Shown piece by piece: positions 699-50,872 of a stretch of DNA of 64,000 bases. The position numbers and the translations under genes are program-made. Source of the stretch: an uncultured Gammaproteobacteria bacterium (lineage in GTDB: Bacteria; Patescibacteriota; Patescibacteriia; Patescibacteriales; GWC2-42-12); NCBI GenBank assembly GCA_964560005.1, contig CAZLKB010000003.1:174951-238950 (forward strand), given 5' to 3'. The notes under the pieces are model-generated. The model worked only from the letters and a program-made list of their open reading frames with translations, was not told where the DNA came from and searched no databases. Every line of letters starts with the position of its first letter. Position 1 is the first letter of the stretch.

Positions 699-1631
699 AT
701 GACTATAGACCAAGCTCTAAAACTTGCCGCCGAAAAATTAGGCGCTAAACATATTAATCTTCCGCGCTTAGAGGCGGAAATTTTATTATCCGGCATTCTA
801 AAAAAACCGATTGAATTCTTGCTGGTTCATGGAGAAATTAAATTAACTCCTAAGGCAAACTCCAGATATCAACAACTGTTAAAAAAGCGGCTTAAAGGCG
901 AACCAATCGCTTATTTAACCGGCCACAAAGAATTCTTCGGACTGGACTTTATGGTGAATAAGAATGTTTTAATCCCCCGCCCCGAAACTGAGTTAATGGT
1001 GGAAGAAGCGCTAAGGCTCATAGCTCATAACTCACAGCTCGTAACTTTTATCGATATCGGTACGGGCAGTGGTTGTATAATTATAAGCTTAGTCAAAAAT
1101 TTTATTTCCAAATTTCTAACTTCCCTGCCTACCCGGAAAGCAGAAGATCCCCAATTTCTAGCGTCAGATATATCATTAAAAGCTTTGGCTATCGCTAAAA
1201 AAAATGCTCGTTCTCATTATGTTTATAAACAAATAAAATTTATCCAGGGCGATTTGTTAACTCCTGTTATTCATGATTCATTATTCATGATTCATAGTTC
1301 TCTTATCATTCTCGCCAATCTCCCCTATATCCGTAAAACTTGGAAAAATAATTGTTCAGCGGATACAATCGGTCTTAATTTTGAACCAAAAATTGCGCTG
1401 TTTACCGGCAAACGAGGCCTTGAACTGTATGAAAAATTGTTTAAACAAATAAGCATATTATGCGTTATGCGTTACGCGTTACGCGACATCACGGTCATGT
1501 TAGAATTTGACCCTAGGCAGGCGAAGATGATGAAAAAGTTGATCAAGCGGGAACTGCCTCAAGCGAAAATCCAAATAAAAAAAGACCTGGCCGGTCTTGA
1601 TCGTTTTGCGATTCTACAAATTAATCTCTAA
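699..1631 (+). CDS. prmC: Release-factor glutamine methyltransferase (HemK/PrmC family) with repeat-derived insertions
   Basis: SAM motif IDIGTGSGC; catalytic tetrapeptide present as NLPY (canonical NPPY); position after prfA. Confidence 0.87.
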   Translation: MTIDQALKLAAEKLGAKHINLPRLEAEILLSGILKKPIEFLLVHGEIKLTPKANSRYQQLLKKRLKGEPIAYLTGHKEFFGLDFMVNKNVLIPRPETELMVEEALRLIAHNSQLVTFIDIGTGSGCIIISLVKNFISKFLTSLPTRKAEDPQFLASDISLKALAIAKKNARSHYVYKQIKFIQGDLLTPVIHDSLFMIHSSLIILANLPYIRKTWKNNCSADTIGLNFEPKIALFTGKRGLELYEKLFKQISILCVMRYALRDITVMLEFDPRQAKMMKKLIKRELPQAKIQIKKDLAGLDRFAILQINL

Positions 1632-2973: not shown

Positions 2974-3107
2974 ATAATAACGAATTTAAGGCGAATTATA
3001 AACGGATAATACACGAATTAAACTGAACTATAGAAACTTTATACAAATTATTATAAATTCTCTATAATTCGCTACAATTCGAGATTAATTGGCATTTAAC
3101 TCGCTTT
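2974..3107. repeat. AT-rich word dyad (CGAATT word family)
   Basis: cgaatt/aattcg words in opposite orientation in the two halves of the spacer. Confidence 0.55.
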
Positions 3108-4214
3108 TTAGTAATTTATTTTAGATCTTATAATGATGCTTTCCATCACCCCGACCAGCATTAAACTGGACAATAAGCCGCTGCCGCCATAGCTGACCAA
3201 GGGCAAAGATATGCCCACGACCGGCAAAATACCGAGATTCATACCTATATTAATAAACATTTCAATAAAAATCAAGCTGACCGAGCCCAAAATGAAAAAA
3301 ACTCCGAAATCATTGTTGATTCTTTTTAGGTGATAAATAGACCGATAAAAAAATATACCAAAGAATAATAAAATAAGCAAGACCCCGATAAAACCCAGCT
3401 CTTCGGCAATGACGGCAAAAATAAAATCAGTTTGAGCTTCGGGCAAAAACTTAAGCTGCGATTGCGACCCGAACCCGAGGCCGCGGCCGGCTAGTCCGCC
3501 GGCGCCAACCGCGATAATCGCCTGTGAAACATTATAGCCTTGATCCAGGTCATTAAACGATGGATTCAAAAAGGTGTTTATTCTTTCTTTCTGATAATCC
3601 TGAAACACAAAGTACCAAGAACCGGTAAAAATAACCGCTATGGCTAAAAAAATCATCAAAAAATATTTTTTACTGAAACCAACCAGCGCCACCATGGCCA
3701 GCCATAATAAAAATAGAACAAAGGCCGAACCGAAATCCGGTTGCGCCAGCACCAGAACGATAAATAACAAAACTCCGCTGCCGGAAACCAAGAGATGTTT
3801 AAACTCTTTAATTTTAAGCGAAATTGAAGAAAAATATTTTGCCAAAAATAAGACCAAAATAAATTTTATCAATTCAACCGGCTGGAGGTTGAAACCGCCC
3901 AGATTATACCAACCCCTGGTGCCGCGGTTCACTTGGCCGAAAATTAAAACTCCGACTAATAAAATAAAACCGATGATATAAAAATACCTATGATAACTTC
4001 TTAAATTATTATAATCAAAAAAAGCAAACAAAAAAAGCAAAACCATGCCTAAAACGATAAAAAGGATTTGCTTTTTAAAATTTAGCAGGTCTAACTGCGA
4101 ACGCCCCAGCGCTACGCTATAAATTTCCGCTAAACCGAAGCAGACCAATAAAACCACCGGGGCGAATAGGATCCAGTCAAAATTTTTTAAATATGAAACT
4201 AATTTATTAAACAT
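3108..4214 (-). CDS. SEDS-family peptidoglycan glycosyltransferase (FtsW/RodA/SpoVE)
   Basis: About 10 TM segments; C-terminal LPxxGxxLPLxSYGGSxLL-like motif (GISLPLVSYGGSGLLSS). Confidence 0.88.
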   Translation of the reverse strand: MFNKLVSYLKNFDWILFAPVVLLVCFGLAEIYSVALGRSQLDLLNFKKQILFIVLGMVLLFLFAFFDYNNLRSYHRYFYIIGFILLVGVLIFGQVNRGTRGWYNLGGFNLQPVELIKFILVLFLAKYFSSISLKIKEFKHLLVSGSGVLLFIVLVLAQPDFGSAFVLFLLWLAMVALVGFSKKYFLMIFLAIAVIFTGSWYFVFQDYQKERINTFLNPSFNDLDQGYNVSQAIIAVGAGGLAGRGLGFGSQSQLKFLPEAQTDFIFAVIAEELGFIGVLLILLFFGIFFYRSIYHLKRINNDFGVFFILGSVSLIFIEMFINIGMNLGILPVVGISLPLVSYGGSGLLSSLMLVGVMESIIIRSKINY

Positions 4215-4337
4215 TAATCTAAATTACCAATGACTAATGACAAATGTCAAATCAATGTCAAATGACAAATTACAAATTTGCTACGCTTACGCTGAAAATT
4301 ATTTTGTCATTGGAAATTTGTCATTTGTCATTTTAAT
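4215..4337. repeat. AT-rich word dyad (AATGACAAAT / ATTTGTCATT family)
   Basis: Left half has aatgacaaatg words, right half their complements; the 15-mer gtcatttgtcatttt (4320-4334) recurs inside rsmI at 51071-51085. Confidence 0.7.
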
Positions 4338-5303: not shown

Positions 5304-5384
5304 GTTTTTATTTTAACATAAACCATCCCGATATAGCAAACAACCAATTCAGTTTATTTATCATAATATCAGGAAATTTTCCCC

Positions 5385-5413
5385 TTGCCAGTAACTCCAT
5401 TTTTTGCTAAAAT
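5385..5413 (+). promoter_or_regulatory. Candidate sigma70-type promoter for gyrB
   Basis: TTGCCA - 17 nt - TAAAAT. Confidence 0.45.
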
Positions 5414-5439
5414 TATAGTATAAGAAAGAATAAAAACAC

Positions 5440-7575
<2,136 letters not shown>

Positions 7576-10101: not shown

Positions 10102-10653
10102 TTATTTATTTCTTAATTTCTTATAATCGTTTTTTAAAATACTCATTATTATTACATCAATAAATTTTCCATGTTTATAAACCGTTTGTCTATGTAAGCC
10201 TTCTTTTTTAAAGCCGCATTTTTCATAGCATCTTATACCTCTTTTATTAAAAGTAAATACTCCCAACTCTATTCGGTTCAGTTTTAATTTTTTAAATCCA
10301 AATTTTAAAATCGTTCTTAATGTATCCGCGCCTAAACCCTGCCCCCAATAATTTTTATCGCCGATAACGATGCCCCAAGTAGCTTTTAAATTTTTCTTCG
10401 TATCAATTTGTTGTAGTCCTGTGTTACCAATTAGTTCTCCATCTTTTGTATAGATTGCCCACCTGATCGCTGTTTTGTCGCACTTTGACTTATTAATAAA
10501 TTCTATTTCTTTCTTTAATGTCAGGCCGCTATGGTCGCGTCCTAAATACATATCCACTCCAGGGTCCTTAAACCAACGCAAAAAACTTTCCGCCTGGCTT
10601 AAATTTAACGGTTTCAAAATTACTTTTTTCCCTTTTAATATCGGCGCTTTCAT
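10102..10653 (-). CDS. GNAT-family N-acetyltransferase (RimJ/RimL-like)
   Basis: WGQGLGADTLRTILKFGF and NKRGIRCYEKCGFKKEG motifs; start moved to Met51 because residues 1-50 are translated repeat elements. Confidence 0.85.
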   Translation of the reverse strand: MKAPILKGKKVILKPLNLSQAESFLRWFKDPGVDMYLGRDHSGLTLKKEIEFINKSKCDKTAIRWAIYTKDGELIGNTGLQQIDTKKNLKATWGIVIGDKNYWGQGLGADTLRTILKFGFKKLKLNRIELGVFTFNKRGIRCYEKCGFKKEGLHRQTVYKHGKFIDVIIMSILKNDYKKLRNK

Positions 10654-12687: not shown

Positions 12688-12812
12688 TTCACGCAACTCA
12701 TAACTCGTAGCTCGTCCGCCTCGGCTTCGCTTTAGCGAGACGGGCAACTCTTTTATCCAAGATTTTGAGTTACCAGTTATGAGTTACGAGTTGTGAGTTG
12801 CGAGTTGCGAGA
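12688..12812. repeat. Word dyad (ACTCATAACTCGTA / GAGTTACGAGTT family) enclosing a GCCCGTCTCGC-family element (12710-12745)
   Basis: caactcataactcgtagctcg on the left, gagttaccagttatgagttacgagttgtgagttgcgag on the right. Confidence 0.7.
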
Positions 12813-12871
12813 TGTAAGTTATGATAATATAATTATTATACCAATTTCCCGCATTACTGTCTATGTCTAAA

Positions 12872-16492: not shown

Positions 16493-16590
16493 AATTTTCA
16501 ATTCATAATTTTCAATTTTCAAACAATTTTCAATGCTTTAATTTTCAATTGAAAATTGGTCATTGTAAATTGAAAATTTTTTTCTGTACA
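16493..16590. repeat. AT-rich word dyad (AATTTTCAA / TTGAAAATT family)
   Basis: Contains the perfect palindrome aattttcaattgaaaatt. Confidence 0.7.
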
Positions 16591-17106: not shown

Positions 17107-17985
17107 TTACTTCTTAATTTTCGCTACCATTTCTCCCAGCTCTTCGTCGCCAAAAAAATAAATAATCACTTCCCCGCCCTTGCCCTTCCTTTTGATTTCC
17201 GCTTTAGTGCCGAAAAATTGGCGGAAGGCGAATTCTTTATCCTTGTCCGCGTAATTAATCTTAATCCTGGCCTGCTTAGTCCCGCCCATAATCCTGGTTT
17301 CCTGAATGGCATCGCTGACTGTCATATTATTTCTTAATATTTTTTTATACAGCGCGATTTGCATGGCTTCGTTTTCCAGCCCGACGATGGTTTTAGCATG
17401 TCCTTCGTTAATCCGGCCCTGGATTAAAGCCGTTTGGATTTCTTCGGGCAGGTTTAAATACCTAATGGTATTGGCTATCACCGGCCGCGATTTCCCCACC
17501 CTGGCGGCCAGTTCGTCTTGGCTTAAATTAAACTCATCAATCAGCTTGCGATAAGCGATCGCGGTTTCAATTGAGTTCAAGCCTTCCCTCTGCAAATTTT
17601 CCACCAAGGCGACTTCCAGCTTTTGCTGTTCGTCCGCCTGCCTGATAATAGCCGGCACCGCGGTTAAACCTATGGCTTGCGCCGCCCTTAGCCGGCGTTC
17701 ACCCGCGATTAATTCATACTCGCCGTCTTTCTTAGTTACTATCAAGGGCTGAATTATGCCGTATTGCTTAATGGAATCTATGAGCTCGTTATGCTGAAAT
17801 TCGCTAAAATGCTTGCGAGGCTGCATGGGATTAACCTGAATCTTCTCCGGGTTGATTTGCAGTACCCTGTCTTTATCCGACTCACTTACTACATCAATCA
17901 CTGCTTCGCCGCCGGATGTGACTGGAATTTTTTTTACTTTCTGCGGAATAAGCGAACTTAAACCGCGGCCGAGGCTATTAGGCAT
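17107..17985 (-). CDS. parB: Chromosome partitioning protein ParB/Spo0J
   Basis: ParB box GERRLRAA, HTH region LSQDELAARVGKSRPVIANTIRYL. Confidence 0.93.
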   Translation of the reverse strand: MPNSLGRGLSSLIPQKVKKIPVTSGGEAVIDVVSESDKDRVLQINPEKIQVNPMQPRKHFSEFQHNELIDSIKQYGIIQPLIVTKKDGEYELIAGERRLRAAQAIGLTAVPAIIRQADEQQKLEVALVENLQREGLNSIETAIAYRKLIDEFNLSQDELAARVGKSRPVIANTIRYLNLPEEIQTALIQGRINEGHAKTIVGLENEAMQIALYKKILRNNMTVSDAIQETRIMGGTKQARIKINYADKDKEFAFRQFFGTKAEIKRKGKGGEVIIYFFGDEELGEMVAKIKK

Positions 17986-18935: not shown

Positions 18936-18962
18936 TATAAAAGTGTAAAATGAAAAAATCAA

Positions 18963-19075
18963 AATTAAAAATGACAGTTAAAAATGTAAAATTAAATATT
19001 TAAACATTTTAAACTTTACATTGTCATTTTACACTTTGATATTTACATTTTACATTTGTATTATACCCCATTTCT
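18963..19075. repeat. AT-rich word dyad (TGTAAAAT / AAAATGACA family)
   Basis: The 18-mer aaaatgacagttaaaaat is shared with the groEL upstream spacer (30618-30740). Confidence 0.65.
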
Positions 19076-24921: not shown

Positions 24922-27189
24922 TTATTTACTTAACTCCCCTATCTTTTTCTCCATCTCCGCATTCCCCGGATTCAATTCCAAAACTTTCTGATAATATTTT
25001 AAAGCTTCTTCAGTATCGCCCTTGGCCTCATAAGCGACGGCTAAACTATATAAGCTGTTGGAATGCTTTGGAGAAATTGTTAAAACCAGCTTAAACCTGA
25101 CTATGGCTTTATCAATTTCTTTATGATTAAAATAATATCTGCCCAGTTCATAATAAACCTCCACGCTCTCAACCTCGCCCGCCAGCTCATTCAATAGCGC
25201 CAGGGCTTGATTATCTTTTTTATTGCTTAAATAAATTTTAGCCAAGCCGAATTTAGCTTCATAATAATCGCTCTTTAGCTCTAAAGCCCTATTATAATAT
25301 TTTTCCGCATTAACCGGGTCGTTATTGTTGGCATAGGCTTTAGCCAGCTCGGCGGCCAAGACCGGATTAGTCGGTTCAAGCGAAACGGCTCGGCTGAAAT
25401 ATTTAACCGCCCAAGCCTCGCTGCCTTGAGTTAACGGCCTGATATCGCGGTATATCATGCCCAAGGTTTCCTGGGGTAGGACGGAGTTAGGCGCTAAAAC
25501 CTCGGCTTGCCCGGCTAGCGCCAAGGCCTGGGCGATATTCGCTTGGATATTCGCGTTATCTCTTTGTTCAATCGGTTTTAGAGCTTCCGCCTTAGTTTTA
25601 TTTAAATAAAAATCGGCTAGGCTTATCCTAAAATTATAGCGGTAAGGATTTAATTTAACCGCGGCCGTTAAGTTGGCCTGGCGATTCAGCCTTTTTGAGG
25701 CGAAAATATCGGCGATAAAAAATCTGATTTCAAAAACCAAGAGTACGGCCCAAAGCGCGATTAAAAAAAATAAAACTAAATAAAATAGCCAATGGAATAT
25801 ATCGATTTTCTTTAAATCAATTATTTTTTCTTTAAAAACAACCTGATTCCGGCTTTGCCAAAAGGCGATGATTAAGCTTAAACAGAACCAAAAAATAAAA
25901 TTTAAAACCGTGTTGGTAAAAGAAAATAACCGGGCAAAAAATATTAAAATAAAAACGATCAACAGGCCGGCGATTAGATAATAATCTTGATTAGATAAGG
26001 CCGCCGGCAGGCCTTTCAGATGCTGCCTGATTAAAACGATATTTAAATAAATCACTAAGCTGATTATTAAAAAATAGCTTAGCGCGGTCAAACCGCCGGC
26101 GGTTGCCAGCATCTCTAAAAAATTTGAACTGCTTTTATCAAACCTAATCTGCCAAAAAGCGCTTTGGTTTAATTCGGCCGGACGGTAAAGAGAAAAGCCG
26201 TAGGCAAATGTTCCCGGGCCGCTGCCAAGCGCCGGATACTGCTTAACCGCTTCTTCGGTGATCGCAAGAGATTGATCGTGTGTCAATAAAATTTCTCCGG
26301 GTAAATCCTGTCCCGTGGCTCTTTTTACTAAATTTACATTAGGCCAAGCCAGCATAACCACCGCTATTAGCAATAAAATCGCGGGAATTAACAGCTGGTA
26401 ATTTAAGATCGCCTTAAGCTTGCCTCTTTGATCCAGCCAGTAGAAAAAAATTATTAAAATAGCGCCCAGACCGAGTAGAGCCCAAATTAAATAATAATTA
26501 ATGAACAGTAAAATTATTAAAAAAATCGCTAAAACTGCGCTGAAAAAAATATGGCTATGCTTTTTAAGACTATTTTGAGTTAAAAAATCAGCCAAGCCGA
26601 TTGAGACGAAGGCTAAAAAAATTCCCAAGGCGATGAGCGAACTGCCGGCTAAATTAAATAATCCGGCTGAAAAAAAGTTTACCCATCTATCCGCGGCCGC
26701 GCTTAGCCAGCCGAAGACGGAGAAAAGAAATACAACGGCAACGACCGCCGAAGAATAAAACAATATTTTTAATAAATCAATGATTTTTTTTGTGCTGTCG
26801 GCGATCTCGCTGTTAATTATTAAAAAATAAAGGATTACCAGGCTGAATAAACCCAGCCAGGCATCGGTTGAGCGTCCGAAATAACCGAAAAAAGACGAGA
26901 AACGGTCAAGGCTGAGCCAAGAAGCGGCTAGAGCCAATAATAAAAAAATTAAGACCGGTAAATTCAACGGATTAATTTTCAATTTTAATTGTCCCGGCGC
27001 CAAGGCTTTAATCAGCCAAAGGAAAAGCGCCAGAGGCATAGTGAGCCAAAGCAAAAACTGCTTATTAAACTCAAAATATTCACTCGTCCAAGGTAAAAAA
27101 AACAAAGGCAGGAGAAAAATTGTCGCCTTTATTAATATTACAACAGATTTATCTAATTTATTGATAATCTTATCTGCCATCACATTCAA
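24922..27189 (-). CDS. Polytopic membrane protein, O-antigen ligase/polymerase-like, with C-terminal TPR repeats
   Basis: More than 12 TM helices then repeated A..YY..A...P TPR-like units (AEKYYNRALELKSDYYEA, ALKYYQKVLELNPGNAE). Confidence 0.7.
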   Translation of the reverse strand: MNVMADKIINKLDKSVVILIKATIFLLPLFFLPWTSEYFEFNKQFLLWLTMPLALFLWLIKALAPGQLKLKINPLNLPVLIFLLLALAASWLSLDRFSSFFGYFGRSTDAWLGLFSLVILYFLIINSEIADSTKKIIDLLKILFYSSAVVAVVFLFSVFGWLSAAADRWVNFFSAGLFNLAGSSLIALGIFLAFVSIGLADFLTQNSLKKHSHIFFSAVLAIFLIILLFINYYLIWALLGLGAILIIFFYWLDQRGKLKAILNYQLLIPAILLLIAVVMLAWPNVNLVKRATGQDLPGEILLTHDQSLAITEEAVKQYPALGSGPGTFAYGFSLYRPAELNQSAFWQIRFDKSSSNFLEMLATAGGLTALSYFLIISLVIYLNIVLIRQHLKGLPAALSNQDYYLIAGLLIVFILIFFARLFSFTNTVLNFIFWFCLSLIIAFWQSRNQVVFKEKIIDLKKIDIFHWLFYLVLFFLIALWAVLLVFEIRFFIADIFASKRLNRQANLTAAVKLNPYRYNFRISLADFYLNKTKAEALKPIEQRDNANIQANIAQALALAGQAEVLAPNSVLPQETLGMIYRDIRPLTQGSEAWAVKYFSRAVSLEPTNPVLAAELAKAYANNNDPVNAEKYYNRALELKSDYYEAKFGLAKIYLSNKKDNQALALLNELAGEVESVEVYYELGRYYFNHKEIDKAIVRFKLVLTISPKHSNSLYSLAVAYEAKGDTEEALKYYQKVLELNPGNAEMEKKIGELSK

Positions 27190-27305
27190 TGAAAAATTAA
27201 AATTTCAAAATGTAAAATGACAATGCAAAATGTAAAATTATTTTTATTTAGACATTTTAAACTTTTAATTGTCACTTTTAATTTTGATTTTTACATTTTA
27301 AATTT
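27190..27305. repeat. AT-rich word dyad (TGTAAAAT / AAAATGACA family)
   Basis: aaaatgtaaaatgacaatgcaaaatgtaaaatt ... aattgtcacttttaattttgatttttacatttt. Confidence 0.65.
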
Positions 27306-28367
27306 TTACCCCTCTTCCCTTATTGCCTTCCTGCCTTCTTCCCGACTATCAAAAATATCCTTGATAAAAACCGCTAAAGCCGTGGCCACCGGGATGGAAA
27401 GAATGGCGCCGATAACGCCGGCTAATTTAAAACCGGCCAGCATGGCTAGAATGCTGATGATCGGATTCAAACCCACCGCTTTTTCCATTATTTTCGGATA
27501 GAGAAAATTGCCTTCTATAAACTGTATGATATAAAATAATATTATAACGAAAACAGCCAACAGCGGCGCCTGGGTAAAAGCGATAAAAACCGCCGGCAGC
27601 GAGCCGAAAACCGCCCCCATATAAGGTATGAAGGAAAACAAACCGACTAAGATAGCCAGTATCAAGGCGTAATTAACCCCCAAAATCAAGAGTCCGATGT
27701 AGGTCGCGATGGCTAAGACCAGCCCTAAAATAAGCTGCCCCCTTAACCAATAGCCCATCTTAATTTGCACCCGGTTAACCAACTGCATGATATAGGACTG
27801 ATGCTTTTCCGGCGCCACGGACCAAACCAGTTTCTTCATAGCGCTTTCCTCCACCACCATGTAAAAAGTCAAAACTAAAATTAAAATAAAAGAAACGATG
27901 CCGCCGAAAATATTGGTTACCGTGAAAAAAATTCCTGAAGCCGTTGTTTGCAAATAGTTGGACAGAAGATCCAAGGACCCTTGGAACTTATCGGCCGCGC
28001 CGTATTTTAACGAGTAGTCTCTTAAATCGCTGAATTTTGAATAAAGAGATTCAAAATAGCGCGGGAAATTACTGGAAAGATCGTTAATTTCTTTCATGAT
28101 TACCGGAATAATCAGATACAAGGCCATTCCCAGGATGGCGAAAACCACGAAATATAAAAACAGCACGCTCAGCGAACGCGGGATTTTCTTTTTCTTGAGC
28201 CAGTCAACCCAGGGATTTAAGGCGCTGGCGAAAACCAAGGAGACAAAAAAGAGAATCAGGATATCGCCGACTAAATATAAAAAATACAGCAAAACAAAAA
28301 TCGCGATTATTTTTATTATGGTGGAGCTGGAAATATTAATATTGACCGGATGCTTGTTGAACTCCAT
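27306..28367 (-). CDS. AI-2E family transporter (PerM/UPF0118)
   Basis: 8 TM layout, FIPYMGAVFGSLPAV motif; start moved to Met37 (Met24 at 28406 also possible) because a terminator hairpin lies in the longer ORF. Confidence 0.83.
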   Translation of the reverse strand: MEFNKHPVNINISSSTIIKIIAIFVLLYFLYLVGDILILFFVSLVFASALNPWVDWLKKKKIPRSLSVLFLYFVVFAILGMALYLIIPVIMKEINDLSSNFPRYFESLYSKFSDLRDYSLKYGAADKFQGSLDLLSNYLQTTASGIFFTVTNIFGGIVSFILILVLTFYMVVEESAMKKLVWSVAPEKHQSYIMQLVNRVQIKMGYWLRGQLILGLVLAIATYIGLLILGVNYALILAILVGLFSFIPYMGAVFGSLPAVFIAFTQAPLLAVFVIILFYIIQFIEGNFLYPKIMEKAVGLNPIISILAMLAGFKLAGVIGAILSIPVATALAVFIKDIFDSREEGRKAIREEG

Positions 28368-28424: not shown

Positions 28425-28478
28425 AAAAAAGAGCCTTGGCGGATAGTTCGTTAAATGGTAACGAATCTCCGCCAAGGC
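28425..28478 (-). terminator. Strong rho-independent terminator on the - strand
   Basis: gccttggcgga / tccgccaaggc 11-bp stem extended by ttcgtta/taacgaa; T6 follows on the - strand. Confidence 0.75.
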
Positions 28479-28492
28479 GTTGATGCAAGGTG

Positions 28493-28699
28493 CTATTGCG
28501 CCAGCAGACGCTGCGATATTGCACGGATATGTTGCGTACCCGTTTCGGGCATTTGAGTTATAAGCTTTCTGGCCTCAAGCCGACCCCCTTCGCTCAAAGC
28601 GTTGCGCGCTAAGAGCAGCAACGCCGTCGCCATGATGGCGGATACAGCTGGCGAGACACATTTTGGAAACCAGCAAAAGAGCCTGCAAGTTATCGCCAA
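28493..28699 (-). CDS. Possible small protein (46-68 aa) in a GC-rich island; could be ncRNA or a gene remnant
   Basis: ORF ends 15 nt before the terminator; internal ATG gives MATALLLLARNALSEGGRLEARKL...; no RBS or family recognised. Confidence 0.3.
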   Translation of the reverse strand: MAITCRLFCWFPKCVSPAVSAIMATALLLLARNALSEGGRLEARKLITQMPETGTQHIRAISQRLLAQ

Positions 28700-28800
28700 A
28701 CTGGGGTGGTTCCCTCGGCTAACAAAATAGCCAAATAGCCATTTTAAACCACGCGCCGCGGCGGTTCGTCACTAAGACGACCCCACGGCTTTTTTTAATT

Positions 28801-28958
28801 GCAAATTAAAAGCGAATTAAACACGAATATATCGCTAATTAAATGCGAATTCAGCGAATAAAAACAGGCGTGGAGTAATTCCCGCGCCTGTTTTGGGCAA
28901 ATTATAAAATTCGCTAAATTCGCATTTCATTCGTTCTTATTCGCTTTTCATTCGCGAT
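28801..28958. repeat. Word dyad (CGAAT family) around the groEL terminator
   Basis: gcgaattaaacacgaat...gcgaattcagcgaat versus attcgctaaattcgcatttcattcg...; central hairpin caggcg..cgcctg (28860-28891) with a T-run on the - strand. Confidence 0.7.
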
Positions 28959-30740
<1,782 letters not shown>

Positions 30741-32239: not shown

Positions 32240-32677
32240 TTATTCCAAATTTTTTAATTTCCTCCACCTCTTCACCGCCTTGGTTCTGGCCAATTCCCGC
32301 TCGAGCGACGCATTAATTTCCGCGAAATTCACTTTCTCGCCAGATCTGGCCTGCTTTTTCAGTTCTTCGGCGCGGCTCCGGCCGGCTTCGGCGCGAGCCA
32401 GGTCTATTTCTTCGGCACGTTCAGCGATATCGGCTAAAATTACCACCTTGTCTTTCTGCACTTCTAAAAAGCCGCCGGAAATTGAGATGATTTCGTCGGT
32501 GCCGTCTTTCTTTTTAATCTGAACCACGCCCGGCATTAAACTGGACACTAAGGGAATATGATTGGGCAAGACCGTAATCTCTCCCATCTTAGTCGGCAGG
32601 GTGATTTGCGAAATCTCCTCTTTTAAGATAATACGTTCTGGTGTGACAATCTCAAATTTTATGAAATTATTGCTCAT
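32240..32677 (-). CDS. atpC: ATP synthase F1 epsilon subunit
   Basis: FKFEIVTPERI start typical of epsilon; last gene of the atp cluster; start moved to Met11. Confidence 0.9.
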   Translation of the reverse strand: MSNNFIKFEIVTPERIILKEEISQITLPTKMGEITVLPNHIPLVSSLMPGVVQIKKKDGTDEIISISGGFLEVQKDKVVILADIAERAEEIDLARAEAGRSRAEELKKQARSGEKVNFAEINASLERELARTKAVKRWRKLKNLE

Positions 32678-32702: not shown

Positions 32703-32776
32703 CCCACAAATCTACAAATCGGCTACGAATATTACGAATATTTGTATTATTTGTAGCAAATTCGTAGATTTGTGGG
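32703..32776. repeat. 74-bp palindromic dyad upstream of atpC; a second copy lies upstream of typA
   Basis: cccacaaatctac...gtagatttgtggg; the 20-mer tacaaatcggctacgaatat is identical at 56269-56288. Confidence 0.85.
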
Positions 32777-32787
32777 TTGGTAATAAT

Positions 32788-34316
<1,529 letters not shown>

Positions 34317-34383
34317 TGTCATTCCCGCGAAAGCGGCCTGTTTTCCTCTTCTGCGCCGAGGTCAGCACCGAGGAGTAATCCAG
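34317..34383. repeat. TGTCAT-type element, extended form (left end of the atpG-atpD insert)
   Basis: tgtcattcccgcgaaagcgg...gcgccgaggtcagcaccgaggagtaatccag. Confidence 0.7.
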
Positions 34384-34407
34384 AAATTCCATACCTTCGA
34401 CGAGAGA

Positions 34408-34436
34408 TTGACTAATTATTAATTATATAATATATT
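34408..34436 (+). promoter_or_regulatory. Promoter antisense to the atp operon
   Basis: TTGACT - 17 nt - TATATT. Confidence 0.55.
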
Positions 34437-34508
34437 ATATTGTTAGGTTAATATCAATCGCACATTCCAACAAAACGGTGGCGACCGAATACGCGAAAAG
34501 GAAAAATC

Positions 34509-34706
34509 ATGAGAACTGTCTTGGTAAAAGGTACATATGCTCCCTTCCTTATGAGCGAAAAAGCCGCGAAACGTGGCAAGCACATTATTCTTCTTGGGCA
34601 CAAAGCAATCGGAACCGCTAACGCCAAGAAAGGCAACGGCCGTGCTTTGTCTAACGGCAGGAAAAATAGGAACTTCAGGCATGTCCCGGAAACCCTACTT
34701 GATTAA
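34509..34706 (+). CDS. Orphan 65-aa highly basic protein, antisense within the atp operon
   Basis: AAGGA 8 nt before ATG; 14 Lys/Arg versus 3 Asp/Glu; followed by a clean terminator; no family recognised. Confidence 0.4.
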   Translation: MRTVLVKGTYAPFLMSEKAAKRGKHIILLGHKAIGTANAKKGNGRALSNGRKNRNFRHVPETLLD

Positions 34707-34728
34707 CGCCAAGTGGCCTCGTTCTGCC

Positions 34729-34760
34729 GCCACCGACTTCAAAAGTTGGTGGCTTTTTTT
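34729..34760 (+). terminator. Rho-independent terminator of the antisense cassette
   Basis: gccaccgac / gttggtggc stem (one G-U) followed by T7. Confidence 0.8.
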
Positions 34761-34823
34761 ATTTAAAGAACTTTCTTCTCTTTCTGTAATGCCGGGGCGG
34801 AGCGGAACGATAGCATGTTTTAC

Positions 34824-34890
34824 TGTCATGCCGGACTTGATCCGGCATCTCATGAATTAAATGAGATCCTGAATCAAGTTTAGGATGACA
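34824..34890. repeat. Composite TGTCAT...ATGACA inverted pair (three hairpins)
   Basis: tgtcatgccggacttgatccggcatc - ctcatgaattaaatgag - gatcctgaatcaagtttaggatgaca. Confidence 0.85.
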
Positions 34891-34936
34891 GATTAGAGCT
34901 CCTTGCAGTCGCTCCCTCCAGTATAACAACACCACA

Positions 34937-35953: not shown

Positions 35954-37516
35954 TTATTTCACCAAATACTCCACCGTCTCCTTATAATCCTCAACCAGTT
36001 TCTTCATCTCCCCTTCCAGCTTTTCGTTTAACTCCTTCTTCTCGGCGATTTCTTTTAATATCTTAGCGCCGCTGGTAGCCGCGTATTTATGAAGCCCGGC
36101 TTCAAATTCCGCGATTTTTTCCACCGGCACATTATCCGCCAAACCGTTAATCAAAGCAAAGAAAATCAAAACTTGATTGGCTACGGCGAGGGGCGAATAT
36201 TGGCCCTGCTTAAATATTTCCTGTAATCTCTTGCCGCGCTCCAGCTTAGCTTTAGTGTCCTTATCCAAATCAGAACCGAATTGGGCGAAAGCGGCCAATT
36301 CTCTGAACTGCGCCGCCTCCAGCTTCATTTTTCCGGCAACTTTCTTCATGGCTTTTATCTGCGCAGAACTGCCGACCCGGGAAACCGAGAGGCCGGCGTC
36401 CACGGCCGGACGGCTGCCCTGATAAAACAATTCCGGCATTAAATAAATTTGGCCGTCGGTAATGGAAATGACATTGGTCGGAATATAGGCCGACATATCC
36501 CCGGCTTGGGTTTCAATAATCGGCAAAGCGGTAATGGAACCGCCGCCGTATTCCTTACTCAACTTGCAGGCTCTTTCCAATAATCTGGAATGTAGATAGA
36601 AGACATCGCCGGGATAGGCTTCGCGGCCGGGCGGGCGCCTTAAAAGCAAGGAAATTTCACGATAGGCTACCGCGTGCTTAGACAAATCATCATATACTAT
36701 TAAAACATCTTCGCCCTTGTCTAAAAAGTATTCGGCCATGGCGCAGCCGGCATATGGAGCGATATAGAGGAGTGATGCCGGATCCGAGGCTCCGGCCAAG
36801 ACAACCGTGGTATATTCAAGCGCGCCCGATTGTTCCAACTTAGCCACCATGCTCGCCACTTTAGATTCTTTCTGCCCGATGGCTACATAAATACACTTCA
36901 TGTTTTGGCCTTTTTGATTGATAATCGTATCTATAGCTATGGCGCTTTTGCCGATCTGGCGGTCGCCGATAATCAATTCTCTTTGCCCGCGGCCGATAGG
37001 AATAATCGCGTCAATAACCTTGATTCCGGTCTGAACCGGCTCCTTAACTCCCTGGCGGGTAATTACGCCCGGCGCGATTTTTTCCACCGGATAAAATTTT
37101 TCCGCCTCTATTTCCCCCTTGCCGTCCAGCGGCTGGCCCAAGGCGTTAAGCACGCGCCCGATAACGCCAGGTCCCACCGGCACCTCCAGAATTTTTTTCA
37201 GGCATCTTACCTCGTCGCCCGCTTTAATTTTTGAACTATCGCCCAAAATTATGGCTCCGACTCGATCTTCTTCCAAATTAAGCGCCACGCCATAAGACTT
37301 TTCATTTTCAACCAATTCGCGTTCATTCGCGTTCATTCGCGATGAATTCGTGATCTCCAACATTTCCGACATCATGACATCGGAGATGCCTTCAATTCTG
37401 GCAATGCCGTCGCCGACTTCAATCACCCGGCCGACGGTTTGCTCCTTCACGCTAGCCTTATAACCGGCGATTTGCTCTCTTAATTGTTCAACGATAAAAT
37501 CTTTGGTATTATTCAT
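35954..37516 (-). CDS. atpA: ATP synthase F1 alpha subunit with an in-frame repeat-derived insertion near the N-terminus
   Basis: Walker A GDRQIGKS, typical alpha motifs; extra [19 protein letters not shown] segment. Confidence 0.98.
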
Positions 37517-37620: not shown

Positions 37621-38022
37621 TTATTTTATCATCCTATCTTTTAAACCCTCTAGTTGCGCTTTCAGGCTGCCATCAATAATCTTATCGCCATATTTAATAA
37701 CCACTCCGCCCAGAATATTTTTATCAACTATTTCGTCAACTTTGATTTCTTCCGCTCCGGAATGTTTGGCAATATAAGTTTTTAGCAATTTCACGGTTTC
37801 CCGGCTTAATTCGTTGGCGCTCAGTATTTCCGCTTCTACCTGGCCGCGTTCGGTCTGCCAAACCTTAGTAAATTCTTTTATAATCTTATCCGCCGATGCG
37901 ATTTTATTTTTCTCTGCCAATATTTCCACAAACTTTTTTATAACAGGTTTAACATCGGCGGCCGATTTACCTTCGACCGATTCATATAAACTTAAAGCGA
38001 ATTGTTTAGCGGTAATACGCAT
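37621..38022 (-). CDS. atpH: ATP synthase F1 delta subunit (short form, 133 aa)
   Basis: Position between atpF and atpA; C-terminal GGVVIKYGDKIIDGSLKAQL typical of delta/OSCP. Confidence 0.85.
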   Translation of the reverse strand: MRITAKQFALSLYESVEGKSAADVKPVIKKFVEILAEKNKIASADKIIKEFTKVWQTERGQVEAEILSANELSRETVKLLKTYIAKHSGAEEIKVDEIVDKNILGGVVIKYGDKIIDGSLKAQLEGLKDRMIK

Positions 38023-38817: not shown

Positions 38818-39064
<247 letters not shown>

Positions 39065-40567: not shown

Positions 40568-40655
40568 CTCATAAAATCTCGTAACCCATAACTCACAACT
40601 CGTAACTGCTTTAGCACGGCATTTTGAGTTACGGGTTACGAGTTATGAGTTGCGA
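40566..40655. repeat. Word dyad (ACTCATAACTCGTA / GAGTTACGAGTT family)
   Basis: ctcgtaacccataactcacaactcgtaact ... gagttacgggttacgagttatgagttgcgag. Confidence 0.75.
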
Positions 40656-40660
40656 GAAAC

Positions 40661-50726: not shown

Positions 50727-50872
50727 AAATATGACAATTTTTAATTTCTAATTTTCAATTTTTAAACAATTTTCAATGACTTAATTTTCAATTTTAAAAA
50801 CCAGGGGCATTGAAAATTGAAACATTAAATCATTGTTTGAAAATTGAAAATTGAAAATTGAAAATTTTTTAA
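50727..50872. repeat. AT-rich word dyad (AATTTTCAA / TTGAAAATT family)
   Basis: ctaattttcaatttttaaacaattttcaatg ... cattgaaaattgaaac...gtttgaaaattgaaaattgaaaattgaaaatt. Confidence 0.7.

Follow-up and report, generated by a model that had tools for sequence, protein, structure and literature searches.

A probable translated array of an intergenic CGAAT word in a hairpin turn of the ATP synthase alpha subunit of a Patescibacterium

Translated repeats and the atpA loop

The translation of repeat DNA as part of bacterial proteins has been described in several systems. The Rickettsia palindromic elements (RPEs), which are found in frame in housekeeping genes, are discrete units of ~150 bp whose families have consensus sequences and encode a conserved peptide (PMC10969869, review). 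Long simple sequence repeats with units of 5-11 nt are represented by the TAACTGA heptamer arrays of Beggiatoaceae and Cyanobacteria (PMC4679880). Uptake signal sequences (USS) and DNA uptake sequences (DUS) occur in coding regions of Pasteurellaceae and Neisseria, where they are translated in more than one frame and lie preferentially at residues of low conservation (PMC2817400). Here we describe a segment of atpA, the gene of the F1 ATP synthase alpha subunit, which is probably a translated, one-armed array of a short word, R-CGAAT-W, that also forms arrays in the intergenic spacers of the same clade. It is located in a stretch of 64,000 nucleotides from contig CAZLKB010000003.1, hereafter called the window. 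The host is a Falkowbacteria-like member of the Patescibacteria (candidate phyla radiation, CPR), and the best genome match shows 88% identity in AtpA. For comparison, 169 related loci were fetched, which are numbered L###, whereas WIN denotes the window locus.

The atpA gene (35954..37516, minus strand) encodes a protein of 520 aa and was identified from its open reading frame (ORF), Pfam matches and operon neighbours. Its product has the features of an alpha subunit, with matches to PF02874, PF00006 and PF00306 (ATP-synt_ab_N/ab/ab_C), the Walker A sequence GDRQIGKS, which fits the GDRQxGK[ST] motif, and an alignment to solved alpha subunits with E=9e-205. A complete atp operon is present around it (atpI-like, a, c, b, delta, alpha, gamma, beta, epsilon). 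The segment belongs to the loop I55-Y75 of the N-terminal beta-barrel (37292..37354, minus strand), whose length is 21 aa in the window protein and ancestrally 9 aa, as judged from alignments and AlphaFold2. The first-pass annotation had described 37295-37351 as being built from spacer words in frame, and its sequence and coordinates were confirmed; in AtpA it corresponds to T56-S74. Four sense-strand CGAAT words are found there (37315..37350, minus strand; the plus-strand ATTCG starts are 37315, 37325, 37335 and 37346), with a spacing of 10, 10 and 11 nt and with starts at codon positions 2, 1, 2 and 3. The sense layout is atc-ACGAAT-tcatcg-CGAAT-gaacg-CGAAT-gaacg-CGAAT-tgg. Tandem Repeats Finder (TRF) detected a perfect 10-nt tandem repeat at 37315..37341 (minus strand; CGCGAATGAA in sense, 2.7 copies, 100% match). 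The unit is arranged head-to-tail beyond chance, as in long simple sequence repeats, and three 10-nt units amount to 30 nt and hence stay in frame. The homologous array of L162 differs at 2 positions within this stretch, therefore the perfect repeat in the window seems to result from local homogenisation.

The Pfam beta-barrel match covers 81 residues over 66 profile positions. An insertion of 15-19 extra residues had been proposed at first; the lower value agrees with the alignment to two solved AtpA structures (+15 residues), while the range is slightly too high against the nearest insert-less relatives with their 9-aa loop (+12 residues). In an AlphaFold2 model of mediocre confidence (56 homologues; mean predicted local distance difference test, pLDDT, of 67.9), strands are placed at residues 51-56 and 73-79 and coil at 57-72, with pLDDT <50 at residues 60-70. 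The insert is predicted from this model to be a disordered extension of the beta-hairpin turn. In sense orientation CGAAT encodes T/A/S-N, R-I/M or x-E-x. These products are mostly hydrophilic, which may explain why only the sense orientation is found in loops.

The loop was surveyed in the 120 nearest AtpA cluster representatives (75-87% identity) and in 54 loci at a greater distance (73-76%). Of the 120, 69 carry a 9-aa loop (FKTAKGSVY type) and 51 a longer one of 10-29 aa; 17 length classes occur in all (9-29 aa). Apart from a 2-aa indel in 2 sequences, it is the sole internal length-variable site of AtpA among the 120. All 54 distant loci have a 9-aa loop and none is frameshifted, therefore the short turn is regarded as ancestral. 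This agrees with the invasion proposed at first, as the orthologue alignment identifies the insertion as derived (9-aa loops in 54/54 distant and 69/120 nearest relatives) and its words as conserved at the nucleotide level across lineages. Loops with CGAAT words, always in sense orientation and in all three phases, were found in WIN, L161-L166, L103, L107, L105, L111, L113, L117 and L009. Different sequences occupy the loop elsewhere: L011 and L013 carry (AAATCCG)4-5, whose 7-nt unit gives a peptide with the 7-residue period KSEIRNP, L100 and L101 a 21-nt duplication of GCGGACT words, and L028 CGCGGAA x3. The loops of L054 and L112 (about 10200-10290) have 45 aa and contain two copies of a 30-nt palindrome, CGTCGCAGTC-N10-GACTGCGACG, of which the 169 fetched loci contain no further instance. 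Duplications of 9, 21 and 30 nt that preserve the frame occur among the loops of the lineages. All recovered loop variants are in frame and free of stop codons, so that the frame was indeed left undestroyed, as stated in the first-pass annotation. A phase-variable contingency locus was considered and rejected, since no recovered variant is out of frame, the 54 distant loci are intact and atpA is a housekeeping gene.

Like the atpA loop, the RPEs of Rickettsia are intergenic-type repeat DNA translated in frame in conserved metabolic genes at fold-compatible positions, and the palindromic hairpins in the loops of L010, L020 and L054 are a further likeness. However, the atpA case shares a 6-7-nt word in an array with a period of ~10 nt, and its insert is one-armed and unstructured. 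RPEs have hit many Rickettsia genes, whereas here one recurrent loop is affected in free-living or episymbiotic Patescibacteria. With the TAACTGA-type repeats, the arrays described here have in common units of 7-11 nt, a concentration in spacers, often beside start codons, and lineage-specific words. TAACTGA-type repeats are also occasionally translated in ORFs, in all three phases and with a 7-aa period that results from 3 x 7 nt. Their ORF cases are located at protein termini or in hypothetical proteins (PMC4679880), whereas the atpA array lies mid-domain in a universally conserved enzyme, has been passed on through several lineages and is frozen at its synonymous sites. In addition, the spacer arrays are here typically inverted, hairpin-forming pairs.

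The tandem repeats of Borgs also seem to arise from one genome-wide repeat-forming process in spacers and ORFs and to encode hydrophilic disordered segments; their ORF repeats are described as perfect amino-acid repeats and as recently formed (PMC9879509). The atpA array, in contrast, has a 10-nt (or 7-nt) unit with one word read in three phases, and it is old and imperfect. Uptake sequences are comparable as short motifs maintained at the DNA level inside genes, but they are single 9-12-mers which are hugely over-represented genome-wide, while CGAAT occurs in arrays, without an overall excess and without a longer consensus. DUS are also found in spacers as inverted pairs acting as terminators. 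An identity of the CGAAT word as DNA uptake sequence was rejected, as it is not over-represented (128 occurrences against ~135 expected in the window) and has no extended consensus. We know of no uptake bias in these organisms. A literature report of translated spacer-type arrays in Patescibacteria was not found. In-frame translated repeats as such are already known; what is added here is the series of loops at one hotspot and a constraint at the nucleotide level.

Word arrays in spacers and their relation to the loop

In the window, the density of CGAAT is 2.6x higher in spacers (38 in 9.0 kb) than in coding sequences (CDS; 90 in 55 kb), and GCGAAT was found 17 times in spacers against 6.2 expected. 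The spacer words are concentrated at 2974-3107, 5304-5541, 28476-28958 and 32708-32787. At least four words per 60 nt occur at two places only, the spacer 28813-28950 and atpA. Likewise, three words spaced by 9-11 nt are restricted to the spacer 28909-28954 and atpA (5 overlapping matches against 0.01 expected). The consensus of the spacer words is just R-CGAAT-W in an AT-rich context. Adjacent spacer words in the same orientation follow each other at distances of 7-11 nt, most often 9-10 nt, and the loops peak at 10 nt, whereas the spacing in other CDS is flat without a 9-10-nt peak. The same word, the 9-11 nt spacing, the three codon phases and the word-forced codons bear out the early description of the segment as a spacer-type repeat.

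The typical array in the window and its relatives has the layout CGAAT...CGAAT, centre, ATTCG...ATTCG. The spacer downstream of groEL (28801..28958, minus strand) reads in sense as stop codon, five CGAAT, terminator hairpin and four ATTCG, and folds with -58.6 kcal/mol (z-score, z, -7.6). The groEL stop codon TAG (window 28947-28961) is directly adjoined by the array ATCGCGAATGAAAAGCGAAT..., and readthrough past it would give IANEKRIRTNEMRI, a sequence like the atpA loop peptides. Further inverted arrays are present in the spacer 2974..3107 (3+2 words, no strand assigned, long hairpin, z -6.1), in the divergent-promoter spacer 5430..5541 (2+2 words, no strand assigned, z -4.4), whose ATTCG words reach the start codon at 5542, and in the hairpin-forming atpD-atpC spacer 32711..32787 (minus strand, 1+2 words in sense, z -6.6). 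The spacer arrays fold with energies between -21 and -59 kcal/mol (z -4.4 to -7.6), which no shuffled sequence equalled. Unlike these hairpin spacers, the atpA insert is one-armed with all four words in the same orientation, and it does not fold (z -0.74). Arrays were also found in spacers of L111, L113, L001, L106, L117 and L054. Two near-identical 90-nt inverted CGAAT arrays in L111 (17550-17642 and 19306-19398) are located 1.7 kb apart, and this pair suggests that whole arrays can be duplicated.

The polarity of the arrays was determined over the window and more than 160 related loci. In the 40 nt that follow a stop codon, sense CGAAT was counted 23 times and ATTCG 7 times, and in the 40 nt that precede a start codon ATTCG 21 times and CGAAT 5 times. 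The reverse order ATTCG...CGAAT was found in none of the paired arrays listed for the window and its relatives. CGAAT is one among several word families of the window spacers. Other arrays detected by TRF have 7-, 11- and 13-14-nt units, like AAATGAC x8.6, TGAGTTA x8.4, AAATTAG x4.7 or TTGAAAA, and many of the non-CGAAT arrays are likewise paired in inverted orientation and form long hairpins (z -3.5 to -5.9). Most window spacers are tandem word arrays, for example 4221-4333, 12766-12824, 16493-16550, 18938-19062, 27188-27308, 39031-39063, 40626-40656 and 50736-50866. The most over-represented spacer hexamers of the window are ATGACA and TGACAA. An Rfam scan of the window revealed one tRNA and nothing else. 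Orthologous spacers of sister lineages keep the architecture of stop codon, array and terminator hairpin with changed words; the groEL-downstream word of L164, for instance, is ACACGGATTA.

The groEL-downstream spacer is also the best match to the loop among the window spacers, in both arms and including a four-word collinear stretch, and the exact 12-mer ATCGCGAATGAA (28947-28958) is common to this spacer and the atpA loop. The observed score of 31 lies ~3 standard deviations above that of shuffled loops (22.8 +/- 2.7, maximum 36). The relation of the window loop to the spacers is therefore one of the repeat family and not of an identifiable donor. Closer matches were obtained in relatives. 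The loop DNA of L010 (CAAAAAATCCGACCCCGCCTCTCGCGAGAAGCGGGGCG) matches its own groEL-downstream intrinsic terminator AAAAAATCCGCCCCGCCTCTCGCGAGAGGTCGGGGCGGATTTTTT (spacer 17479-17677) at 37/39 positions, and the loop array of L011 matches a spacer array at 32/39 positions. In the loop of L020, AAATCCG words flank a GC hairpin, and its core recurs in spacers of L011 (29/32) and L012; Rfam gave no family for the matching segment of the L011 spacer. These matches show a capture from spacers for L010, L011 and L020. For the window array we infer such a capture from these relatives and because single 10- or 7-nt units would shift the frame.

The CGAAT density of spacers is 4.4/kb in genomes with CGAAT loops, 3.1/kb in those with other inserts and 2.0/kb in insert-less genomes, at a coding density of ~1.3-1.5/kb in all three groups. 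When duplicate loci and those with less than 800 nt of spacer are left out, the medians become 2.8, 2.0 and 1.3/kb (Mann-Whitney P=0.005 for CGAAT-loop vs insert-less). In addition, the most repeated hexamer of each loop was tested for enrichment in the spacers of the same locus, with 1-6 kb of spacer per locus. Enrichment was found for GCGAAT in WIN (17 vs 6.9, P=8e-4) and ACGAAT in L111 (25 vs 6.8, P=7e-8), as well as in L117 (P=0.016), L011 (P=0.004), L014 (P=1e-4) and L107. A comparison based on 9-mers common to a loop and its own locus was dominated by A-rich words of low complexity and was replaced by these GC-containing hexamers. Across the loci, 17 word clusters lie in CDS and 44 in spacers, and 8 of the 17 are the atpA loop. 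Of the remaining nine, two apparently coding CGAAT clusters, in L010 (9374) and L018 (4294), turned out to be spacers upstream of the true start codons. Another one, in L137 (3414-3439), consists of ATTCG/CGAAT words that encode the C-terminal tail of an AtpI-like protein (…NNSNPRIDSNAS…) and looks like an ORF extended into a spacer array. The best-supported conclusion from these sequence comparisons is that the loop appears to be a recurrent landing site for spacer-derived DNA in this clade.

Age of the array and competing explanations

A homologous array with the same word layout is present in WIN, L161, L162, L163, L164, L165 and L166, which share 77-87% AtpA identity. Judged by this distribution, the window array is old and inherited and not a recent invasion of this genome. 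Outside the loop, identical codons are used in pairwise comparisons at 43-62% of the identical residues, and synonymous sites are near saturation. Over the seven lineages, one codon is kept in 26/307 identical-residue columns (8.5%; Thr 0/9, Asn 0/5, Ala 1/34, Arg 0/17). In the loop, the codons ATC ACG AAT and (G/A)CG AAT are identical in 6-7 of the seven lineages and the frame-3 words keep C-GAA-T. The loop residues between the words vary freely (S/E/T/L/K, N/M/K/R/A, E/K/M). Codon usage in 14 lineages differs accordingly between the loop and the rest of atpA, with 85% vs 23% for ACG among Thr codons (P=7e-10), 81% vs 30% for GCG (Ala), 28% vs 3% for CGA (Arg) and 91% vs 37% for CAC (His). 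The conserved Thr of the short loops is encoded by ACT, ACC, ACG and ACA at ordinary frequencies. It is the nucleotide word that is conserved and not the peptide, the opposite of what the first-pass annotation had named as evidence against a repeat, namely conservation of the amino acids without the nucleotides across lineages. In L161 the four words are kept in atpA, and its own groEL spacer now has other words. Some form of word maintenance exists, which may be homogenisation within the array or selection on DNA or RNA; the data favour neither.

With a probability of about 0.72, we regard the segment as a translated, one-armed array of the intergenic R-CGAAT-W word of the clade in a hairpin turn of AtpA, which goes back to an old capture of the spacer type followed by remodelling. 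In an ancestor, a piece of a spacer-type array would have been copied into a permissive, solvent-exposed turn, likely by template switching or illegitimate recombination. Later, the array would have been remodelled by slipped-strand events, of which those would have survived that left a stop-free, hydrophilic product and a net change in multiples of three, like 3 x 10 nt in the window or 3 x 7 nt or 9 nt in relatives, with CGAAT in sense orientation. The outcome would be a disordered hydrophilic loop that is tolerated by F1.

Several observations weigh against this explanation. CGAAT/ATTCG shows no overall excess on both strands of the window (128 observed vs ~135 expected), and CGAAT is concentrated in 4-5 of ~47 spacers. 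No donor-length copy of the loop was found in the window spacers (score 31 over 27-39 columns), and own-spacer enrichment was absent in L009, L103, L105, L100, L054 and L028, with 1-6 kb of spacer each. The atpA array is, by the sequences compared, more stable than the spacer arrays, which is unpredicted by a purely neutral hitch-hiker model. For the window array itself, capture and slippage in situ are not separated. In addition, the AtpA tree is a rough, weakly resolved neighbour-joining tree on which gains and losses cannot be counted, and all compared sequences are metagenome assemblies.

Slippage in situ would mean that the array was born inside the loop from a chance ACG-AAT (Thr-Asn) seed without any transfer from a spacer, and that loop and spacers are alike because the same slippage and word preference act everywhere. 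This is possible but rather unlikely. In-frame loop duplications of 9 nt and 21 nt (KTNKTN in L105 and L117; L100), (AAATCCG)n in L011 and L013 and the perfect 10-nt x 2.7 repeat of the window are consistent with it, and so is a window loop without visible element boundaries or a donor-length match. Slippage is also the source of 5-11-nt repeats in the view of Mrazek et al. (2007), as summarised in PMC4679880. However, the addition of single 10- or 7-nt units would frameshift atpA, slippage cannot make the GC-rich hairpins copied from spacers in the loops of L010 and L020, the loop words co-vary with the spacer words of their own genome in five lineages, and an ACGAAT seed was found in none of the short loops examined. 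Another explanation, compatible with the old spacer-type capture as the cause of the frozen words, is a dual-coding element, in which the words are kept in atpA for DNA or mRNA recognition by a clade-specific binding protein or as an uptake-type signal and the peptide is a by-product. We consider it rather unlikely as well. It would account for word codons that are invariant despite saturated synonymous sites while the residues between them vary, for an atpA array that outlives the word turnover in orthologous spacers, for the fixed polarity of spacer arrays (CGAAT 23:7 after stops, ATTCG 21:5 before starts) and for the spacing of 9-11 nt, which resembles a helical repeat; uptake sequences behave comparably in coding regions (PMC2817400). 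On the other hand, neither a binding factor nor a transcript end or phenotype is known, the word has just 6-7 nt without genome-wide enrichment, many close relatives have an intact operon without the insert, homogenisation within the array could also keep the words alike, and no significant RNA structure is formed by the insert on its own (z -0.74).

The remaining explanations are disfavoured. A peptide selected at the F1 crown, with a merely coincidental likeness to spacer words, is improbable. The insert is kept in several lineages with the recognisable pattern ITNxSR[IM]xAN[EK]RE, it is positioned in the crown domain, and the delta subunit is short (133 aa, OSCP profile positions 62-172 only). 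But conservation falls precisely on the word codons and extends to their synonymous sites, the residues between the words are unconstrained, other lineages have unrelated loops (terminator copies, AAATCCG, GCGGACT, palindromes), disorder is predicted by AlphaFold2, and 69/120 relatives are insert-less. Very improbable is the transposition of a discrete palindromic element of the RPE type or of a miniature inverted-repeat transposable element (MITE) into atpA, despite the long palindromic hairpins of the spacer copies (z -4.4 to -7.6), the two 30-nt palindromes in the loops of L054 and L112, the precedent of in-frame RPE insertions (PMC10969869) and an insertion that does lie in frame at a permissive site of a conserved protein. 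The copies share only the 6-7-nt word and no full-length consensus, the atpA insert is one-armed and unstructured and not a palindrome or hairpin, orthologous spacers swap words and keep their architecture, and the palindrome of L054 recurs nowhere else among the 169 loci. Terminal repeats were not noticed in the sequences read, which were not scanned specifically for such repeats or for target-site duplications. An assembly chimera, a pseudogene or a translational bypass is hardly conceivable. No point in support of it was found beyond the source being a metagenome assembly, whereas the identical protein is encoded on 2 contigs (NCBI, Logan) and many assemblies made independently contain homologous arrays. 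No variant is out of frame or interrupted by a stop codon, the 54 loci that a first search pattern had missed all proved to have an intact short loop, and the remainder of the gene is highly conserved.

PrmC, neighbouring genes and significance

Translated arrays were identified in a second gene of the window, which encodes PrmC (HemK; ORF 699-1631). At site 1 (1266..1301, plus strand), TRF found a period-7 array of ATTCATG x4, translated as VIHDSLFMIHSS, which is an insertion relative to HemK of T. maritima. Site 2 (1458..1487, plus strand) has a period-7 array of TTAYGCG x4, also found by TRF, which is translated as LCVMRYALRD and falls at an 8-residue gap in HemK. Site 3 (1092-1166) is a further insertion relative to T. 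maritima HemK, at which no array was detected in the window. The window arrays of sites 1 and 2 are read in three phases, and all three sites are length-variable among 120 relatives. In L169, site 2 contains TTGCGAG x4, while in L167 and L168 site 1 contains AATTCNN arrays that include ATTCG words. Site 3 encodes 7-residue-period peptides in many relatives, for example NYELRIMNYEL.

Further observations concern the atp operon. The delta (OSCP) subunit (37621-38022) has 133 aa and matches profile positions 62-172 of 172 only, so that most of its N-terminal domain is apparently missing; in L161, L163 and L164 it likewise has 133 aa. In other F-ATPases, the N-terminal domain of delta binds the N-termini of alpha. 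Between atpG and atpD, 740 nt (34195-34936) are without a credible ORF. In relatives this gap is occupied by a DUF559 endonuclease-like gene, and neither a DUF559 remnant nor an Rfam family was detected in the window gap. Free-standing DUF559 / PDDEXK_3 nuclease-like ORFs are present between atp genes of L161 (12711-13055) and L164 (2812-3210, 4333-4650 and 6850-7260). The gene of the epsilon subunit shows a 10-nt periodicity at 32365-32395 that encodes RAEAGRSRAEE. We take this stretch to resemble the normal C-terminal helical region of epsilon subunits and did not treat it as an insertion.

In L011, two tRNA-like sequences (3354-3470 and about 3650-3760) have a T-loop (GGTTCG...CGAATCC) that is split by the hairpins CCACGGCATCCGCCGTGG and CCCCGATGGATATCGGGG. 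The first matches the Rfam tRNA model with 30.4 bits over 117 nt; visual inspection of the sequence revealed the second, which has no reported Rfam tRNA match. ARAGORN calls neither of the two. They may be cases of repeat hairpins inside tRNA genes.

The atpA loop shows non-coding repeat DNA joining one of the most conserved enzymes without breaking it. It offers an evolutionary series at a single hotspot, from the ancestral 9-aa turn to terminator copies, word arrays and remodelled arrays. The small genomes of Patescibacteria are usually viewed as streamlined. The spacers are here made of lineage-specific arrays of 7-11-nt words with a fixed polarity, which spill into CDS. For the use of AtpA and PrmC as markers, annotators and phylogeneticists should mask such loops. 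Frozen synonymous sites in an otherwise unconstrained loop are a sign of selection or molecular drive acting on DNA or RNA within CDS. It is conceivable, if doubtful, that the R-CGAAT-W and other word arrays of the clade are functional nucleic-acid signals which a clade-specific factor recognises and which are under purifying selection even in atpA, and that surface loops of conserved Patescibacteria enzymes are systematically colonised by them. If this were true, the crown loop of AtpA would be dual-coding with its peptide as a by-product, and PrmC and perhaps the T-loops of tRNAs would be further cases.

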